From: an uncultured virus (IMG/VR IMGVR_UViG_3300020469_000014) | Lineage: Duplodnaviria; Heunggongvirae; Uroviricota; Caudoviricetes | Virus record (IMG/VR): IMGVR_UViG_3300020469_000014 | Span: 1-64,000 of that record | Length of the DNA stretch: 64,000 nucleotides | Strand: one strand, 5' to 3' | In this document: in pieces, positions 42,544-55,260 of the stretch | How positions within the stretch are numbered: the first letter of the stretch is position 1 | Layout: each line of letters opens with the position of its first letter | Notes under the pieces: model-generated | Seen by the model: the letters and a program-made list of their open reading frames with translations, nothing else | The model's database searches: none | Told to the model about the DNA's origin: nothing | Translations under genes and position numbers: made by a program

Positions 42544-42648
42544 GATTGTTTGTTTGTTTGTTATGTACTTATTATAATAGCATGGCGGGTCGCTGTCAGC
42601 CAGCTCTGTGCCAGTTCTTCTAGTGGCACACTGAGCGCTTCTGCTTGG

Positions 42649-42676
42649 TTGACATTCTCTGGCAGTGCCCTATAAT
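42649..42676 (+). promoter_or_regulatory. Plus-strand sigma70 promoter with no downstream ORF
   Basis: TTGACA-16-TATAAT. Confidence 0.65.
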
Positions 42677-42849
42677 GGACCTATAAGAGATTCGGGGTAG
42701 GATCTATAAACTATTCGACACTGGTGCTGCTCCGCATTAATTGTTACAGCGTGTTACGGAATACCTATGGCACACTTGACGGGCCTTGTCTACCCTTATG
42801 TTGAGCAATGTGTCTTATGTGTGGTTATGAGGATTCGGGGCATTCTCGG

Positions 42850-42878
42850 TTGACTTATGAGCGTTTCCGTGTTATAAT
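42850..42878 (+). promoter_or_regulatory. Plus-strand sigma70 promoter with no downstream ORF
   Basis: TTGACT-17-TATAAT with extended -10 TG. Confidence 0.65.
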
Positions 42879-43031
42879 GCCCGCTTAGATGTCTATAAGA
42901 TTCACCCTTATTTCGCTTTACTTAGTGATCTCTATACAAAACAGAAGTATATTTAATTAACCTTTTTTAATGATTCTCAAATGATACTTAAAAGAGACAA
43001 TTAGACCCACTAAGTGTAGCAAACTCTCTCC

Positions 43032-43253
43032 TTATAGTTCATCATTTAGTTCATATATCTTTCTCTGAATTTGCTTTAGTTTAGCATAGATACTTCCCTG
43101 TCTATTTGCTACTGGTAGAGCATTGTAATTAGCAAGACTTTCTAATACTAACAACTTGATAAGTGCCATTTCCTCATTATCAAATAGAGGGGCACTTAGC
43201 ATGAGGTTCGCTTCTTTAAGGGTCATACGATTCAACCTCGATTTCGATAGCAT
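43032..43253 (-). CDS. Hypothetical early protein
   Basis: ORF track; start may be 43226. Confidence 0.6.
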   Translation of the reverse strand: MLSKSRLNRMTLKEANLMLSAPLFDNEEMALIKLLVLESLANYNALPVANRQGSIYAKLKQIQRKIYELNDEL

Positions 43254-43362
43254 AGTCTGGGTAAGTTGTCTCTTCTACATTATCATTACTATCCGCTAAT
43301 CTCTGTAGAAATGCTTCACTTGATTCCCTTACAGTTTCTTCGATTGTTATTACTTTATCCAT
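43216..43362 (-). CDS. Small acidic hypothetical protein (48 aa)
   Basis: Manual ORF MDKVITIEETVRESSEAFLQRLADS...; GGAGG upstream. Confidence 0.6.
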   Translation of the reverse strand: MDKVITIEETVRESSEAFLQRLADSNDNVEETTYPDYAIEIEVESYDP

Positions 43363-43569
43363 CTAGACTGCCTCCTTAGTGTTATACTTACTAATGGCAA
43401 TTTGTCCCAGATTCTCAACATATAGAGTCTTAACTCTCTCTCCATTCTTATCATTCAACTCTAGTAGTTTGTTCCAGTTCCAGTTACTTGGCGAAACACA
43501 GTTTGCTTCACTTACTGTAAAGTCTAATGTAACACGATAGCGAGTTACTGATTGTGATTGAGAGTCCAT
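43363..43569 (-). CDS. Hypothetical early protein
   Basis: RYRVTLDF...P.NWNW..LL motif; TTGACA-17-TAGAAT promoter at about 43597-43625. Confidence 0.75.
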   Translation of the reverse strand: MDSQSQSVTRYRVTLDFTVSEANCVSPSNWNWNKLLELNDKNGERVKTLYVENLGQIAISKYNTKEAV

Positions 43570-43755
43570 AAGAATGAGAGTGGTGGATTACATTTAATTC
43601 TACCAGATATTGCACTAATTGTCAACCAGTGGACGATATTTCCTCTACTACATTGTTATTTAGTGGGGAAACATTGACGATGATTGTGATTACTTAAGCA
43701 CGCTTATATAAAAAAATTCGGGCGTTCGCCTCTAAGGGACTAGGAACTATGTAAT

Positions 43756-43863
43756 ACTAATAAAGACGAATTACTCTTATTAGTTTACAACTAGTGGTCT
43801 TACTAAGTGATTAACAAACAACTCACTTATGCCACTAAGTATAGCGATTAAAGACGATTAATC
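43756..43863. other. Non-coding triple-hairpin element
   Basis: ACTAATAA/TTATTAGT, TAGTGG..TAAGTGA/TCACTTA..CCACTA and GATTAA/TTAATC stems. Confidence 0.5.
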
Positions 43864-43881
43864 ACTCATTAGAACTGTCAT

Positions 43882-44016
43882 TCACCTCTTTTTCTTTTTG
43901 GACTGTTTAACCATCTTGTTAAACTTCTTTGATTGACTGGGTGACATACCACAAAAATAGTTCAGTAGATTGCCTTCATACTGGTCAGCAATGTTTGAAA
44001 GTTCGTTATCCATCAT
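43882..44016 (-). CDS. Small hypothetical protein (44 aa)
   Basis: Manual ORF MMDNELSNIADQYEGNLLNYFCG...; ATGA coupling. Confidence 0.6.
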   Translation of the reverse strand: MMDNELSNIADQYEGNLLNYFCGMSPSQSKKFNKMVKQSKKKKR

Positions 44017-44177
44017 TGTGCTAAACTCTCAAAACGCTTCATCGCAAGTTTAATTGCTTCCTCATCGATTTGATCAATAGTGACGATTTGTCCTTTATAA
44101 CGATAAAAGTTTTCAATTTCTTCTAGTGACTCCTCATAAAGTGTTTCAAGTAATTCATCATTAACAGCGCAACTCAT
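44013..44177 (-). CDS. Small hypothetical protein (54 aa)
   Basis: Manual ORF MSCAVNDELLETLYEE...AMKRFE. Confidence 0.65.
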   Translation of the reverse strand: MSCAVNDELLETLYEESLEEIENFYRYKGQIVTIDQIDEEAIKLAMKRFESLAQ

Positions 44178-44312
44178 TTAATTTTCCTCATAGATAGGGG
44201 CGAACAATTGATAGTAAAGGTCATTCATGAGACCGAATTCAAACGAAGTGGAAGCGTGCTCCTCATCAACACCTTCCCAACACTTCATAATTTCAGTGTA
44301 AGTATCTTCCAT
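44178..44312 (-). CDS. Small hypothetical protein (44 aa)
   Basis: Manual ORF MEDTYTEIMKCWEGVDE...; TAATG coupling. Confidence 0.6.
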   Translation of the reverse strand: MEDTYTEIMKCWEGVDEEHASTSFEFGLMNDLYYQLFAPIYEEN

Positions 44313-44530
44313 TATAGACACTCACTAGGTGCGAAACCGATAGAAGCGATAGCATTATCAAGCGCAACTCTATCAAGGTCAGGATCATCAAAATCAACGC
44401 CTGCAGCGTGATCTACACCCCACTCGAGCACCTCATCACAAAAATCTGAGAAATCTTTGCATACCCAAGCAACATTTTCAAAGTTTTCTACTTCTTTGAT
44501 TCTGTTAATTAATCTGTCTGTTTTAGTCAT
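44312..44530 (-). CDS. Hypothetical early protein
   Basis: ATG at 44530 directly after the AACAAAC leader; EWGVDHAAGVDFDD. Confidence 0.75.
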   Translation of the reverse strand: MTKTDRLINRIKEVENFENVAWVCKDFSDFCDEVLEWGVDHAAGVDFDDPDLDRVALDNAIASIGFAPSECL

Positions 44531-44616
44531 GTTTGTTTGTTTGTTTGTTATACTATTATTATAGGGCATTGAGATTGAATATCAACCCCACTTGTGCCAG
44601 TTTGATTAGTGGCACA

Positions 44617-44856
44617 CTATCGGTTGACTTTCTCCAAGTCACTTAGATAGCATTCCACTGTATGAAACTCATAGTCATTAATGTAAGTTTTAATAACAGC
44701 GTAGTCTCTACTTCTATCCAATAAAACTACATCACCTTCTAGATCATCATGTACGAGCGATTTAACACTAGTGCCTAGTTTGATGTTTGCTGTTACATCT
44801 TGACCAATTTTAAGAACATCTTTTTTACATAGTTCTTTGTATTCTTGAATTGTCAT
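44617..44856 (-). CDS. Hypothetical early protein
   Basis: ORF track; ATG at 44856 coupled to upstream TAA. Confidence 0.7.
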   Translation of the reverse strand: MTIQEYKELCKKDVLKIGQDVTANIKLGTSVKSLVHDDLEGDVVLLDRSRDYAVIKTYINDYEFHTVECYLSDLEKVNR

Positions 44857-45017
44857 TATAGTTGATTCTCCCATACTGTTGATTTAAAACGTCTCACTGC
44901 TTTGTCTAACAGTTTAATATCACCATCGCAGATATCAGCGGCAGACTCATCCTCTACATGAGAGAATGAATTGTTGATATCACCTATGAGAGTGAGTAAT
45001 GCTTCGTAATTAGTCAT
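44856..45017 (-). CDS. Small hypothetical protein (53 aa)
   Basis: Manual ORF MTNYEALLTLIGDINNSF... after the cassette leader. Confidence 0.7.
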   Translation of the reverse strand: MTNYEALLTLIGDINNSFSHVEDESAADICDGDIKLLDKAVRRFKSTVWENQL

Positions 45018-45056
45018 AGTTGTTTGTTTGTTATACTACTATTATAGTCGATCGAA

Positions 45057-45329
45057 CTAGAATTTAGTCCTTGATTGTGCCACTTTAGCGATTGTCCTAC
45101 TATTCATAAACTGAGCAGGTCTCTTTGTATTACATGTAACAGCATAATTCATATCAAGTAAAATATCAATTTCTTCCGCCATGTTAAACACGTTGATTGC
45201 TTCATTTTCGACTGTCTTACCTTTATAGGTAACCACCTTCAATCTAGTAAGGTTACTAACTTTATTTTGTCCATCTTTGACTTCATAATAGTCAACAACT
45301 GTGTTTAGGTTATCAGATTGAAATTGCAT
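45057..45329 (-). CDS. Hypothetical early protein
   Basis: 90-aa ORF after a cassette. Confidence 0.75.
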   Translation of the reverse strand: MQFQSDNLNTVVDYYEVKDGQNKVSNLTRLKVVTYKGKTVENEAINVFNMAEEIDILLDMNYAVTCNTKRPAQFMNSRTIAKVAQSRTKF

Positions 45330-45429
45330 GATGTTCTTTGTTTGTTATACTATCATTATAGGGCACTGATATGCAATAACAACACTTAGTGTGCCACTAA
45401 TCAAACTGGCACACTGTTGGTTGATTATA

Positions 45430-45678
45430 TCACCAATCTGGGGTAGGTTGCTTTGCCTGTGCTTTTTCGACCTTATCATAGTATTTGTCAACTGAACCCT
45501 CTAAGATTTCAAAGATAGTATCAACTTCATTTACATAATCATCAAATGGTTCTAATAATTGACCTTTAACTCTGTCCGCTCTGTAATGCTCACTCTTTTT
45601 AACACTATCCTCAAGTGAGCATAGGATAACACCTATTTGTGCTTCGGTTAGTGTGACTTTGTATAGTGTATTATTCAT
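45430..45678 (-). CDS. Hypothetical early protein
   Basis: ORF track; ATG at 45678 preferred. Confidence 0.7.
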   Translation of the reverse strand: MNNTLYKVTLTEAQIGVILCSLEDSVKKSEHYRADRVKGQLLEPFDDYVNEVDTIFEILEGSVDKYYDKVEKAQAKQPTPDW

Positions 45679-45943
45679 GGATCCAGTTTCCTTGCTCATC
45701 ATAATCTCCTTCAGTAATAGATTCTAATCCATATGGATCACTATCAATAACGACTGATTGTAAACCTTTATAATCACGTCCCTGTAAACGATAGACTTCT
45801 TTCTGTTGTCTCATATCTCGATCGAGTCTATAACATAATTCTGCATTTAGTGCCATTAATTGACGTTTATCATCACTATGTTCAGAATAATGAAAGTTCA
45901 TACACTCTAACATGTATTCAAGTTCAATAATAGTAAATTTCAT
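45671..45943 (-). CDS. Hypothetical early protein
   Basis: ORF track; ATG at 45943 with GGAGG. Confidence 0.7.
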   Translation of the reverse strand: MKFTIIELEYMLECMNFHYSEHSDDKRQLMALNAELCYRLDRDMRQQKEVYRLQGRDYKGLQSVVIDSDPYGLESITEGDYDEQGNWIHE

Positions 45944-45944
45944 T

Positions 45945-46121
45945 TTAGTAGTCTCCTCCATATATTTCTTCCATCAACTCATCATAAAGTTTCTTTAGTT
46001 TAGTTGCTGTAATACTCTTTGCTTTATCATTAATTTTCTCTTCTGTCTTATCATCAAAATTCTTAGCAAGATCTTTGATCTCTTTGATGTAATAACGACA
46101 GTCTGATCTTGTTATGGTCAT
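45945..46121 (-). CDS. Small hypothetical protein (58 aa)
   Basis: Manual ORF MTITRSDCRYYIKEIKDLAKNF... after the cassette leader. Confidence 0.7.
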   Translation of the reverse strand: MTITRSDCRYYIKEIKDLAKNFDDKTEEKINDKAKSITATKLKKLYDELMEEIYGGDY

Positions 46122-46192
46122 AGATTTGTTTGTTTGTTATACTACTATTATAGTAGCATGAGATTCAATAACAACCACGACTATGCCAGTAA

Positions 46193-46363
46193 TTAAACTG
46201 GCACATCATAGGTTGATTTATTTTTAAGAACATGCCAATATTCTTCATAAGATAGAGTTTCTTCTTTATCTGTATCGGTATTGAGTACAATATCAAAAGG
46301 ATAAAAAGCATAATATCTCATATGATCATCAACATACTCTTTGATTTGTTTATACTTAGTCAT
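46193..46363 (-). CDS. Hypothetical early protein
   Basis: ATG at 46363 (MTKYKQIKEYV...YAFYPFD). Confidence 0.7.
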   Translation of the reverse strand: MTKYKQIKEYVDDHMRYYAFYPFDIVLNTDTDKEETLSYEEYWHVLKNKSTYDVPV

Positions 46364-46589
46364 CAGAACACCCCTTGATAACGCTTTGTATAGTATCGGT
46401 AAAATCCTCATCAAAGAATTCTTCGATCTCTACCATAGCATCATTAAATGAATGGTCATCTATCCATTTTTGCATATCTTGAGCAACATATACAACTAAA
46501 TCCTCGACTGACATTCCATCAACGACTCGATCGATATAACGCTCTTTAAGAGCATTGAATTGTTTGTCTGTTAGTTTTGTTTTGTTCAT
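46356..46589 (-). CDS. Hypothetical early protein
   Basis: ATG at 46589; Y.DRVVDGMS.EDL motif. Confidence 0.7.
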   Translation of the reverse strand: MNKTKLTDKQFNALKERYIDRVVDGMSVEDLVVYVAQDMQKWIDDHSFNDAMVEIEEFFDEDFTDTIQSVIKGCSDD

Positions 46590-46593
46590 AGTG

Positions 46594-46797
46594 TTAATCA
46601 TGGATGATAGAATCAAAAATTGTGTCATCATTAGGGAACTCATTTACCTTAGCAATTGCTGCTGCGGCAACCATGTTCCAGACCTTTTGTCCTGACATTT
46701 TCTGATCTTGACAATGGAAAGCAACTGTATCCTCTAAGAGTTCAAGCACTTCCATTGACTCATTAAAGAGTTTTTCGTATTCTACAGGGTTCATCAT
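46594..46797 (-). CDS. Hypothetical early protein
   Basis: LEDTVAFHC.....SGQKVW motif. Confidence 0.7.
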   Translation of the reverse strand: MMNPVEYEKLFNESMEVLELLEDTVAFHCQDQKMSGQKVWNMVAAAAIAKVNEFPNDDTIFDSIIHD

Positions 46798-47027
46798 ACA
46801 GTCCTCACGAATAGTTTTGAAATGCGATCGTCAATTTCATTGACTCTCTCATAAACTGATCTGCCTTCGATCAATTCATCTTCTTGCATACTGTCATCAT
46901 CATAACAACGATAATCTTCAAGTGCATTTGAAATAGTGTCCCATTCTCCATCAGTGAAAAATGAGCGAATTGTTTGTAGTTGGTCAAAAGAGAAGTCTCT
47001 AACCAGTGATCCTTGACGATTCATCAT
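46794..47027 (-). CDS. Hypothetical early protein
   Basis: FFTD.EWD.I..AL motif; cassette upstream. Confidence 0.75.
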   Translation of the reverse strand: MMNRQGSLVRDFSFDQLQTIRSFFTDGEWDTISNALEDYRCYDDDSMQEDELIEGRSVYERVNEIDDRISKLFVRTV

Positions 47028-47101
47028 AAAGTTTGTTTGTTTGTTATACTATCATTATAGGGCAGTGACTCAAAGAATCAACCGCCCTTGTGCCAGTTTG
47101 T

Positions 47102-47404
47102 CTACTGGTCTAATGCCCATAGACTTCCACCATCAAAATCGGTAGGGTATCCATAGTTTCTAACTAACATATCTCTAACTCTTTCTCTGTCAAGTGAATC
47201 ACCATCGCCCCAAGTGAATCTATCATTATCCAAATCAGATATCACTTGTAAGTAATCTTCCGTAGCAAGTGTAATGTCACCTTTAGTAACATTCATTTGA
47301 TAAAGTGCATCATCAGCACCATAGAATGAAAAGACATAATCAATAAACTCATCAAGTTGATTGATGTCATATTTTGATTTTCCGATAGCAACGATAGAAG
47401 TCAT
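47102..47404 (-). CDS. Conserved phage early protein
   Basis: FIDYVFSFYG...GDSLDRERVRD; cassette upstream. Confidence 0.8.
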   Translation of the reverse strand: MTSIVAIGKSKYDINQLDEFIDYVFSFYGADDALYQMNVTKGDITLATEDYLQVISDLDNDRFTWGDGDSLDRERVRDMLVRNYGYPTDFDGGSLWALDQ

Positions 47405-47476
47405 AAACCTGTTTGTTTGTTATACTATCATTATAGGGCAGTGATATTGAATATCAACCGCCCTTGTGCCACTTAT

Positions 47477-47671
47477 TCAACTGTCACTAGGTACAACCAT
47501 TTGTGGGATTCCATCTTGAATATCCGCTAAGTGTCCTAGTTTATGACGAATTTTCCTAAAATTAACGTCAAAATCATCGCTCAACTTGTCAGTAACCCTA
47601 CAAGGCGTACCTAAGATAAGTTGAAGCAGAGCGTCACACTCTGCTGCGGTTAGATTTGGGTCATTCATCAT
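47477..47671 (-). CDS. Hypothetical early protein
   Basis: 64-aa ORF, ATGA coupling. Confidence 0.7.
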   Translation of the reverse strand: MMNDPNLTAAECDALLQLILGTPCRVTDKLSDDFDVNFRKIRHKLGHLADIQDGIPQMVVPSDS

Positions 47672-48150
47672 GCTACCTCGTATAATTCTTTTGGATAATC
47701 AGCAGGGATAGTTTCTTTGATAGGTTTGAATGTATCGTTGAAATCTTTAGTCTCTTTGTTCCAAAAACTGAGACCATAACACTCTAGAGTTCCGTCAAGT
47801 TCCTTGACGTAAGCATACTCTCCACAACACTTGTCAGTATCCTCAAAGAAGTGAGAGATAGTTTTGTGAAGTTTAGGAGCATTATCATCCATAGACTCAC
47901 CTCGCTCTGTATAATAGCAAGGTTTGTACTCTCTACCTTCTAACTCTTCGGGTTCCTTAAGATCCCAACCTGAGTTAGTATAGCAACAACTCATGTTACC
48001 ACCATCAATAAGTTCAGCGAATTGGTCTCTAGTATCATAGTGCTTGTTGAGAGTAACTCCCAACCACTGTGGATAACCATCCCAGTGATGATATACTGAA
48101 AGGATTGAACCATCAGCAAGGCGAAGTCCGATTCTTGAATTTGTTGACAT
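47668..48150 (-). CDS. Conserved phage early protein (YxHWDGYP family)
   Basis: MSTNSRIG...SVYHHWDGYP.WLG..L...ELIDGG.MS, EYAY. Confidence 0.85.
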   Translation of the reverse strand: MSTNSRIGLRLADGSILSVYHHWDGYPQWLGVTLNKHYDTRDQFAELIDGGNMSCCYTNSGWDLKEPEELEGREYKPCYYTERGESMDDNAPKLHKTISHFFEDTDKCCGEYAYVKELDGTLECYGLSFWNKETKDFNDTFKPIKETIPADYPKELYEVA

Positions 48151-48231
48151 AGTGTGTTGTTTGTTTGTTATGTACTTATTATAGTGTGGTGGGAATGGAA
48201 ATCAACCACCTGTGTGCCACTAATCTAAGTG

Positions 48232-50729: not shown

Positions 50730-50747
50730 AATTTATCAGTTAAAAGA

Positions 50748-50812
50748 TTGTGGGAGAGATTCGACTTAAAGAGCATTTTCCACTGGGGTCGCTCACTCTT
50801 GCCTCCCACATT
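50748..50812 (-). ncRNA. Candidate structured leader or small RNA
   Basis: Begins at the predicted TSS; UGUGGGAG/CUCCCACA closing stem, AAGAGU/GCUCUU inner stem. Confidence 0.4.
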
Positions 50813-50862
50813 TATATAATAATCCATTGGGATAGGATTACAACCAGTAGTGTGCCAGTTTA

Positions 50863-54391: not shown

Positions 54392-54817
54392 TTACCTGAT
54401 GTACAGATAACCACCTGCCCAGTCACAGTTTGATAGCATCCACTGACGTTGATTGATGTCTCTCATATCAAATCTAACGTGTTTAGCAGGTGCTTTCCAT
54501 GAAGCAGGTTTGTAAACCTCTCCTGTCATTTTGTCAACAAAAGCATGAACCCCTGCACTATCATATTTGCCTTGGTGGTAGTCATTCTGAATGATCTTAT
54601 GATACCTTTTGCCTGATGTTATAGTAAACCTCATGCACTCTTCATCATTCTCAATTTTGTTAATCCTATCCTGTAGGTATGGATTATTTTCCTCTGAATT
54701 ATTCTTGATGCAAGAGCGAACTGCGTAGTTCTTATACTGTTGTTCGAGAGCACGGCAAAGTGTCTCTGTCCATTGAAGTACTTCTACTTTTGTGAGTGAT
54801 TGTTCTAGTGTTGACAT
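54392..54817 (-). CDS. Conserved phage early protein
   Basis: GKRYHKI...VHAFVDK.TGEVYKPASWKAPAK.VR...DWAGGYLY. Confidence 0.85.
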   Translation of the reverse strand: MSTLEQSLTKVEVLQWTETLCRALEQQYKNYAVRSCIKNNSEENNPYLQDRINKIENDEECMRFTITSGKRYHKIIQNDYHQGKYDSAGVHAFVDKMTGEVYKPASWKAPAKHVRFDMRDINQRQWMLSNCDWAGGYLYIR

Positions 54818-54844
54818 AATCTTTGTTTGTATTGTTGTTTGTTA

Positions 54845-54893
54845 AAGAGAAAAGGGGGGAAAGGTAACAAACACAAAACCTTTCCCTCCACAT
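54845..54893 (-). ncRNA. Candidate ~50-nt small RNA or attenuator hairpin
   Basis: Begins at the predicted TSS; stem GGAGGGAAAGGU/ACCUUUCCCCCC, loop UUUGUGUUUGUU, U-rich tail. Confidence 0.5.
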
Positions 54894-54939
54894 TCATATA
54901 TTACTGCTTTATGGTGGTAATACAACCACCTATGTGCCA

Positions 54940-55116
54940 CTACTTCAACTGTCCACTCTTACCAAGTCTGTGTAGATAGTAACCTATGAGAGCACCAATA
55001 CCCATCTTAAACAAGGCACTGAAAGAATTGTCAATTCGATTCAAATTAATATCTGTGCCTGTACCATACTCACTATTCCTCAAATGATAGTGAACAGTTT
55101 TGGGTCTGGTTTTCAT
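54940..55116 (-). CDS. Small protein with a hydrophobic C-terminal segment
   Basis: ATG at 55116; FSALFKMGIGALIGYYL. Confidence 0.65.
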   Translation of the reverse strand: MKTRPKTVHYHLRNSEYGTGTDINLNRIDNSFSALFKMGIGALIGYYLHRLGKSGQLK

Positions 55117-55137: not shown

Positions 55138-55227
55138 GAGAAACAAAAACGTGGACTTAAACTCATTGACTTCTTTTTACGTTTAGGACTTGCACCTAAC
55201 CCAATGGATGCCAGTTTTGTTTCCCAT
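55138..55227 (-). ncRNA. Candidate structured RNA with a T-loop-like arm
   Basis: GGGAAACAAAAC/GUUUUUGUUUCUC closing stem, CAUUG/CAAUG, UUAGG-UGCAAGU-CCUAA. Confidence 0.45.
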
Positions 55228-55231
55228 TATC

Positions 55232-55260
55232 ATTATAGGTCATCTACCTGTCCTTGTCAA
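55232..55260 (-). promoter_or_regulatory. Consensus sigma70 promoter
   Basis: TTGACA-17-TATAAT. Confidence 0.85.

Follow-up and report, generated by a model that had tools for sequence, protein, structure and literature searches.

A promoter-proximal hairpin with an invariant loop complementary to early leaders in T4-like cyanomyoviruses

The locus and its hairpin unit

The stretch of DNA considered here ('the window', 64,000 nt, positions 1 to 64,000 of IMG/VR record IMGVR_UViG_3300020469_000014) contains, in an intergenic interval of its minus strand (54939-54818), a hairpin with a promoter at its base and a U-rich tail, and it is this hairpin and the complementarity of its loop to leaders of predicted early mRNAs that are at issue. 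On one side of the interval is a small open reading frame (ORF) and on the other a gene for a DUF7717 protein, the genes surrounding the hairpin being carried by the minus strand. The window is from a T4-like cyanomyovirus, with Synechococcus phage S-SSM7 (Kyanoviridae, 232.9 kb) matching at ~85% identity over 55% of a 14-kb query. Its parent record is a 134-kb viral contig, and a related genome of 230.7 kb, 99% complete, exists.

From sequence, transcription from the hairpin promoter is predicted to start at ~54891 (minus strand), with 8 nt separating the -10 (54903-54898) from the 5′ arm of the stem; the promoter block, CAGTAATATATGAATGTG, is unchanged in S-SSM7. Further upstream, a GTGGACA-N9-GTGGCACA repeat shares its layout with the GTGCCAC-N8-GTGGCACA repeats of eight cassettes elsewhere in the window that resemble the promoter-early stem-loop (PeSL) cassettes of other T4-type phages (features with their coordinates are in Table 1). 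RNA folding reproduces the hairpin, with one A·C mismatch, and gives -16.8 kcal/mol for the isolated 48-nt RNA from 54891 to the end of the tail. Two features expected of an intrinsic terminator are present, i.e. a stable GC-rich hairpin (12-bp stem, -16.8 kcal/mol) and a U tract right after the stem (UUUUCUCUUU in the window); the third, a short loop, is not, and a simple terminator scan missed the hairpin because it permits only loops of 3-8 nt, the loop here being 12 nt. Overall, the hairpin and U tail look like an intrinsic terminator that would end a ~47-nt RNA. The original prediction, made from the letters of the window, had a cassette promoter here, with a hairpin directly at the predicted start and a U-rich tail behind it, and both sequence and fold bear this out. 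As would be expected of a small RNA gene, a promoter and a putative terminator of its own enclose a short non-coding unit, a statement that comes from the sequence only, and the loop offers a conserved unpaired seed, with an unpaired probability of 0.74 for 8 nt of it.

Table 1. Features of the hairpin locus and of related elements in the window (positions are those of the window)
Feature	Position	Strand	Details	Basis
Whole hairpin and tail element	54844-54891	-	12-bp stem, 12-nt loop, U-rich tail; stem begins ~2 nt past the predicted start site (about +3)	
Upstream cassette repeat GTGGACA-N9-GTGGCACA	54933..54956	-	overlaps small-ORF stop codon (54942-54940)	
Sigma-70-like early promoter (PeSL-like)	54898..54930	-	-35-like TTGTAT 54925-54920, 16-nt spacer, -10-like TAATAT 54903-54898	
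Second small inverted repeat round the -35	GGTGGT 54930-54925 / ACCACC 54918-54913	-		sequence reading
Stem 5′ arm	54889-54878	-	GGAGGGAAAGGU (polypurine)	fold
Loop	54877-54866	-	UUUGUGUUUGUU (12 nt)	fold
Stem 3′ arm	54865-54854	-	ACCUUUCCCCCC (polypyrimidine)	fold
U-rich tail	54853-54844	-	UUUUCUCUUU	sequence reading
Leader motif in cis	54844-54836	-	UAACAAACA, perfectly complementary to loop nt 5-12 and the closing A	
ATG of DUF7717 gene	54817	-		sequence reading
Small upstream ORF	54940..55116	-	58 aa from ATG at 55116; ORF call extended to TTG at 55146; aligns with S-SSM7 gene SSSM7_040	
Downstream gene, DUF7717	54392..54817	-	Pfam PF24835, E-value 9.6e-39; phrog_818, unknown function; annotated as T4-like gene cluster 68 for S-SSM7	
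PeSL-like early cassettes, eight in array	42555..48170	-	predicted mRNAs begin AUAACAAACA; candidate trans targets	
9-mer positions in the cassettes	42555, 44542, 45025, 45339, 46131, 47038, 47414, 48162	-		motif count
Second hairpin, UAAGUGA / UCACUUA	43804..43829	-	loop GUUGUUUGUUAA; 10-nt complement to AUAACAAACAAAC leaders; in a decayed cassette	

Conservation of stem, loop and promoter

The window and S-SSM7 share the same -10 block, loop and leader, and between them the stem has substitutions that preserve pairing together with a paired deletion, one A being gone from the 5′ arm and one U from the 3′ arm. The indels between the two (+1, -1 and +2) are not multiples of three, so the hairpin region is non-coding. 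A coding reading, in which S-SSM7 gene SSSM7_041 starts at an ATG upstream of the hairpin, was rejected because these indels break the frame. The start deposited for SSSM7_041 (L001 10297-10375) reads through the hairpin; it is probably too far upstream, the sequence favoring an ATG 78 nt downstream as the true start.

The wider comparison involved 61 distinct contexts from marine viral contigs, 29 of them termed clade A and 32 clade B, the latter being loci whose flanking protein is only 52-56% identical and whose loop is the same as that of clade A. An exact 18-mer round the loop of the clade A type was found in 52 IMG/VR stretches (44 in the same context) and one of the clade B type in 48 (44 being family members). 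Since an 18-mer search fixes the loop, sampling on the DUF7717 protein was added, taking the best 80 of 565 DUF7717 loci, 74 of which had enough upstream DNA; among these 74, the hairpin is within 160 nt upstream in 52 and, with an intervening ORF, ~270-350 nt upstream in 4, and 18 are without it. At the DUF7717 locus, Syn9, S-RSM4 and Syn19 have no intergenic region, while in P-SSM5 and P-RSM3 a cassette promoter is present there and the hairpin was not found. A covariance model built from clade A likewise yielded no hairpin in the 1.3-1.4 kb DUF7717 loci (those loci only) of Syn9, P-SSM5, P-RSM3, S-RSM4, Syn19 and P-TIM68; in the window's record, as in the 230-kb relative and in S-SSM7, it found a single copy. 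A host origin was rejected, since no genome of Synechococcus or Prochlorococcus has either 18-mer. The two matched 31 and 14 genome contigs, respectively, one match being to a Sericytochromatia metagenome-assembled genome, and these are attributable to chance as ~17 chance matches are expected in 596 Gb.

The stems have diverged with their pairing retained. All 21 distinct hairpin segments fold as hairpins of 11-15 bp (-14.7 to -19.7 kcal/mol). Within clade A, 95.8% of pair cells are standard, versus 55-73% with slid partners, and 12 cells are altered on both sides, versus 4.8 ± 1.5 in shuffles (0 of 500 reach 12), the alignment including one row (L262) that is out of register through an extra loop U. 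The stems of clade B are wholly different, e.g. GUGGAGAGAGG/CCUCUGCUCCAC and GUAAGAGAGAGG/CCUCUGCUCUUAC among others, with compensatory changes of their own such as GUGGAG/CUCCAC versus GUAAGAG/CUCUUAC. This complete replacement between clades is a stronger argument than the counts within clade A, because arms of purines and pyrimidines let shuffles pair well too (91.6%). Across the 61 contexts, and despite the differing sequences, both clades have only purines in the 5′ arm, which includes GGAG or GAGG, and only pyrimidines in the 3′ arm.

The loop, on the other hand, is close to fixed. Scans in which the stem was fixed and the loop left free returned for clade A, among the matches listed, only UUUGUGUUUGUU, UUUAUGUUUGUU and UUUUGUGUUUGUU, and for clade B an unchanged loop in 13 of the 13 family members among the matches listed. 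Both variants fall in the 5′ part of the loop, outside UGUUUGUU, which is constant among those matches. (A looser loop-agnostic pattern was discarded, its matches being mostly chance and only known loops belonging to the family.) A loop not conserved where leaders are had been named at the outset as grounds for refutation; what was found is a loop that is invariant over two clades while the stems covary.

Promoter placement is similarly retained: a -10-like hexamer puts the start at the base of the stem in 55 of the 61 contexts, with 24 of the 29 from clade A and 31 of the 32 from clade B (rows read by eye), several clade B promoters being a perfect TTGACA-17-TATAAT, and the tails of most clade B contexts have runs of 6-10 U. 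The gene after the hairpin is DUF7717 in clade A and any of at least six different genes in clade B. As promoter placement is kept while the downstream gene varies, promoter, hairpin and tail behave as a module of their own. Judged by this comparative evidence, the hairpin is a real, selected RNA element with a sequence-constrained loop.

Complementarity of the loop to leaders

The complement of the loop is over-represented in the window, where TAACAAACA has 11 copies against 1.87 expected (0 of 100 shuffles reach 11). Nine are on the minus strand, eight in cassette leaders (42555-48170) and one 10 nt past the hairpin. The two plus-strand copies, which are the complement in RNA, correspond to the hairpin loop and to 43812. 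That the loop is exactly complementary to early leaders and to a motif right after the hairpin, as had been claimed, is confirmed for the 9-mer UAACAAACA; the accompanying figure of about 10 early mRNAs was near, the exact count for the 9-mer being eight cassette leaders and the adjacent leader.

In each of the eight cassettes a GTGCCAC-N8-GTGGCACA repeat is followed by a variable inverted repeat round TTGATA/TTGTTA, a 16-nt spacer, TATAAT, 6 nt and then AUAACAAACAAAC to the ATG. A sigma-70-like promoter with a stem-loop, repeated among small genes in a plastic region, is the mark of PeSLs, and it is displayed by the cassettes and not by the hairpin. Folding predicts that the candidate target sites are single-stranded and take at most 0.2 kcal/mol to open, so that loop and leader sites are both predicted open. 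In the window's record, at least 8 nt of complement is present in 10 of 154 leaders versus 1 of 154 gene-internal windows.

In S-SSM7, 12 cassette leaders contain 17 AACAAACA matches and a gene contains one more, making 18 (overlaps counted) at 42.0-51.8 kb; S-SSM7 also has six AACAAACACA sites, amounting to 10 nt of complement, versus one in the control. Two clade B contigs, G006 and G007, have cassette arrays starting AUAACAAACA; there CAAACACA occurs six and eight times, respectively, versus once in the control, and 4 of the 12 cassettes of G006 continue with CAG to give 10 nt of complement. Accessible complementary sites near start codons, which a base-pairing small RNA would need, are hence predicted in the window, S-SSM7, G006 and G007. 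For Syn9, P-SSM5, P-RSM3 and S-RSM4 there is no AACAAACA excess over control and no clustering. The cassettes of P-SSM5 and P-RSM3 have mixed leaders, and a search for a parallel anti-leader in these two was dropped, their heterogeneous cassette leaders offering nothing to compare.

In cis, the 25 nt past the stem contain at least 8 nt of complement throughout clade A (29 of 29) and in 15 of the 32 contexts of clade B. Three registers occur, namely AACAAACA, CAAACACAA (of which CAGACACAA is a G·U-compatible variant) and ACAAACAC. Three more clade B contexts have complement only at least 39 nt downstream, and in the other 14 of 32 there is no complement of at least 8 nt in the 60 nt past the stem, with the loop still identical.

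Assembled RNA data

Transcripts of the small upstream ORF must cross the hairpin. The RNA data are assembled contigs (Logan) of standard libraries; part of the stretch is present in 13 runs that are recorded as RNA and come from five studies, and four of these runs were aligned. A short transcript was not seen in these contigs, a type of data unable to show RNA starts, ends or small RNAs. RNAs longer than the hairpin unit (or DNA carry-over in the libraries) extend across the element. One run has a contig of low depth whose end, at 54848, is within the U tract, the next contig starting at 54830. Breaks of run X1 at 54882 and 54911 were rejected as RNA ends, having the 30-nt overlaps typical of assembly graphs.

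A proposed mode of action and its alternatives

The explanation ranked first is a loop-seeded base-pairing RNA, because six features are combined: the element has a promoter of its own, a hairpin at its 5′ end and a U-rich tail, its stem covaries, its loop is both exposed and unchanging, and numerous complementary sites, predicted to be accessible, lie where co-regulated mRNAs begin. An early unit, consisting of a sigma-70-type cassette promoter, a hairpin starting at the transcription start and a U tract, would make a ~47-nt RNA, and the same hairpin would form the 5′ end of mRNAs arising by read-through. The invariant, exposed 12-nt loop would pair with the (U)AACAAACA(CA) that heads the early mRNAs made from cassettes, among them the adjacent downstream leader, and pairing would probably alter translation or stability of the targets once the small RNA had built up. 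The terminated small RNA could act in trans and the read-through transcript on its own leader. Pairing 10-20 nt upstream of an AUG is expected to hinder ribosome loading, and cover at the 5′ end could protect against 5′-end-dependent RNases. We infer the start site, termination, accumulation of the short RNA, pairing and the direction of the effect. That a ~47-nt terminated RNA, which is also a 5′-UTR (untranslated region) element, base-pairs with early leaders is put forward tentatively, on sequence evidence that earns it somewhat less than even confidence. A bolder form of it, in which the RNA would be a global trans switch that caps the shared AUAACAAACA 5′ ends of cassette early mRNAs, silencing them or shielding them from 5′-end-dependent RNases, with widespread ocean cyanomyoviruses timing their early phase in this manner, is rather doubtful. 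Of the possibilities originally offered, action of a small RNA in trans fits best, in that arrays of AUAACAAACA cassettes are in both clades; it is unproven, and the predicted duplexes are weak. Specific support for another of them, an attenuator sensing early mRNAs, did not emerge.

Several observations weigh against a base-pairing small RNA. Net pairing is only -6.0 to -7.9 kcal/mol at 37 °C, from 8-9 A-U-rich pairs. Shuffled U/G-rich loops average 2.8 leader matches, and 33 of 1000 reach the observed 10, because the leaders are CA-repeats; the target prediction against phage leaders that had been suggested thus gives a contrast with gene-internal windows, but pairing that is weak and a count that shuffled loops can attain. 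The co-occurrence of hairpin and uniform leaders does not represent independent events, the lineages being related. Both seed and target are invariant in the data: covariation in trans with a UUUAUGUUUGUU loop would read as AACAAACAU leaders in place of AACAAACAC, and in the contigs with this G-to-A loop variant, which are too short for cassette arrays, none were found. In three of the four metatranscriptome runs contigs bridge the hairpin from the small upstream ORF, i.e. read-through or upstream transcripts exist. The U tract is interrupted in three clade A sublineages (L009, L237 and L262), and 5 of 29 clade A contexts are without an adjacent promoter, two sublineages having a ~60-nt structured insert between -10 and hairpin and one exceptional sublineage another structured element upstream; in such cases the element must act within a longer 5′ UTR.

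Some of these same features are what would be anticipated if the hairpin were solely a 5′-UTR device of the downstream gene, a stem-loop protecting the mRNA and/or an attenuator, with the loop folding onto the leader as an H-type pseudoknot to tune translation and with no action in trans. Sublineages in which the U tract is broken or the hairpin is internal still have both hairpin and leader, the bridging contigs place the hairpin in longer RNAs, and 5′-terminal stem-loops stabilize bacterial mRNAs. The nearby complement, of 8-9 nt, is universal in clade A and present in nearly half of clade B in one or other of the three registers, and the putative second helix is invariant save for one change, in which the G-to-A loop variant turns a G·U into an A-U with the AACAAACAU leader of the same loci. 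However, since 14 of the 32 clade B contexts have an identical loop and no nearby complement, a cis pseudoknot alone cannot explain conservation of the loop, and with the downstream gene also varying, the pseudoknot offered among the original possibilities is not a sufficient explanation. Further, the complement is the common cassette leader, so a high background rate in cis is expected, and its distance from the AUG ranges from 2 to ~19 nt. A role confined to cis is consequently judged unlikely. An invariant loop on a covarying stem is also typical of protein operators, and recognition of the loop by a phage or host RNA-binding protein, be it an antiterminator, a translational repressor or a nuclease guide, with the match to leaders incidental, would accommodate the weak RNA-RNA energy; a terminator hairpin right past a promoter, moreover, invites control by antitermination. 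This would need a coincidence, in that 8-11 nt of exact complement to the most abundant leader motif, in three registers, would have arisen for no reason. No candidate protein was found, the DUF7717 model being without a known fold match, and autoregulation by DUF7717 is disfavored because the downstream gene varies in clade B. The features that the available account gives for sites of T4 RegA (unstructured, A+U-rich and overlapping the AUG; PMC3014915) are not those of a loop on a hairpin 48 nt upstream of the AUG. Protein binding in place of pairing is therefore regarded as improbable.

The two remaining alternatives give the loop no role as RNA. A GC-rich 12-bp stem and a U tract directly past a stop codon are what an ordinary intrinsic terminator of the small upstream ORF would look like, and PeSL cassettes of other T4-type phages are described, in the portion of the source at hand, as pairing promoters with terminator stem-loops (PMC2839356). 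Terminator loops, however, drift freely, and here 12 of 12 loop bases are fixed while stems are wholly replaced; the hairpin is downstream and not upstream of the promoter -10, and its loop exceeds the 3-8 nt of the terminator scan. A terminator whose loop sequence has no function of its own is thus quite improbable. Even less can be said for TAACAAACA being, at +1 to +10 of early cassettes, a DNA operator for a repressor of early promoters with the loop as an inverted extra box. The motif is at a fixed distance from the -10 (TATAAT-N6-ATAACAAACA), and T4 early-promoter shut-off is, as far as the consulted part of a review goes, incompletely understood mechanistically (PMC3014915). An operator leaves unexplained both the covarying stem and U tract round the box and why differing cis leaders complement differing parts of the loop, including the G·U-compatible CAGACACAA, and is considered very improbable indeed.

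Neighboring genes and other structured elements

DUF7717 is present in 343 phage records, nearly all of cyanomyoviruses. Its AlphaFold2 model (predicted local distance difference test score, pLDDT, 80) has a long N-terminal helix and a beta domain, and a Foldseek search of the PDB with it returned nothing at E ≤ 0.001. The small ORF is preceded by a perfect TTGACA-17-TATAAT promoter at 55232-55260 (minus strand), and in one run the contig graph stops at 55226, beside its predicted start. The predicted 5′ end of the resulting mRNA, GGGAAACAAAA (55225-55215), is complementary to UUUUGUUUCUC (55148-55138), which is just before the start codon. This GGGAAACAAAA/UUUUGUUUCUC pairing (55138-55225, minus strand) is predicted to form a long-range helix closing the small-ORF 5′ UTR. 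Both halves are kept in S-SSM7 and in clade B contigs, and the insert between them is variable.

The second hairpin of Table 1 had been seen, as a loop at 43811, as part of the same circuit. Its complementarity to leaders stands, but it is restricted to close relatives and lends the circuit little. It is inside a larger fold in a ~300-nt non-coding stretch, its S-SSM7 copy has one compensatory change, and it was present in 8 of 43 matched loci, all of close S-SSM7-like relatives. With this restriction, and its location at the -35 position of a decayed cassette, it was rejected as independent support, and the motif match there is discounted because -35 boxes of the TTGTTA type resemble the motif.

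A separate promoter-proximal structured RNA is at 50745-50815 (minus strand), directly past a cassette promoter. It has an outer stem GUGGGAG / CUCCCAC, an interior of ~45 nt (CAAGAGUGAGCGACCCC...UUUAAGUCGAA) and then AAUCUUUU. Relatives of it are upstream of DUF7717 in three contigs that lack the hairpin (L450, L455 and L458) and past a promoter in P-SSM5 (L602). There was no Rfam match for it, and its fold z-score is only -0.26.

Significance and relation to known systems

How the early gene programme ends in T4-like cyanophages is poorly understood, and to our knowledge these phages lack the T4 regulators MotA and AsiA. If the hairpin does give rise to a base-pairing RNA, a small RNA that reads a shared leader motif would be a simple and evolvable means of controlling a shuffling set of unknown genes as one regulon, and it would, for these abundant marine viruses, be the first RNA proposed to regulate in trans. 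On a conservative reading there is still a new, deeply conserved structured RNA motif with clear sequence rules. It also has a cultured model, namely S-SSM7 on Synechococcus WH8109, in which the question can be put to a direct test.

Across the window there were 0 Rfam 15 matches at gathering score, with only chance-level rows (E ≥ 2) round the element. A literature search disclosed no title or abstract describing such a hairpin, subscription journals being mostly outside its reach and an earlier description hence possible. The non-coding RNAs known from cyanophages, CfrI, PhotoRC-II, wcaG, manA, glnA and abiF (PMC9964418, PMC12197685), are likewise structured RNAs conserved in T4-like cyanophages; however, as far as the accessible accounts describe them, none is a promoter-proximal 36-nt hairpin with this loop.

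PeSLs were described for the T4-type phages RB49/phi1, nt-1 and PST (PMC2839356; PMC4122927) and, in the sections available, are reported from enterobacterial, Vibrio and other T4-type phages, the word 'cyanophage' occurring 0 times in the accessible text of the 2014 paper (PMC4122927). The window's cassettes are of this known kind and have PeSL architecture, being repeated intergenically in a plastic region of small unknown genes, with a strong sigma-70-like promoter and a stem-loop, and ending at the start codon. In the eight cassettes the stem-loop surrounds the -35 and spacer, a location that PeSLs, in what could be consulted, are described as having among others (PMC2839356). The hairpin differs. 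In the same account, PeSL stem-loops precede the promoter, lie inside it or come just ahead of the start, and are terminators for upstream transcription (PMC2839356), whereas this one begins at ~+3 and is predicted to be transcribed from its own promoter, and so it is not a PeSL stem-loop. Nor do the parts of those papers at hand describe a conserved loop sequence for PeSLs; the hairpin is single-copy with an invariant loop.

Conserved 5′-UTR structures upstream of an unstructured leader have a parallel in the T4 gene 32 pseudoknot and gene 43 operator, the gp43 operator hairpin having loop bases kept across related phages (PMC3014915, as far as available). Those structures, though, are bound by the protein they regulate, whereas the present hairpin precedes varying genes and its loop appears to have RNA as its partner. 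Similar in the type of product are lambda OOP (77 nt) and P22 sar (68/69 nt), short phage RNAs from a promoter and a nearby terminator (PMC12197685, in part). The resemblance is in a small, hairpin-dominated RNA that ends at an intrinsic terminator and acts, here by prediction, on phage mRNAs through pairing. However, OOP and sar, in the description available, are encoded opposite a single target and pair over tens of nucleotides, whereas the candidate RNA comes from a locus away from its targets and would rely on 8-11 nt of its loop as the seed for a motif common to many early mRNAs of a lytic phage. In regulatory logic there is a likeness to T4 RegA and RegB, early phage products that recognize a short motif of many early initiation regions and end expression, as portrayed in the part of the review consulted (PMC3014915). 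Those are proteins, with the RegA sites as set out above and RegB cutting GGAG; here the recognizer would be an RNA loop, and the motif is at the predicted 5′ end of the mRNA.

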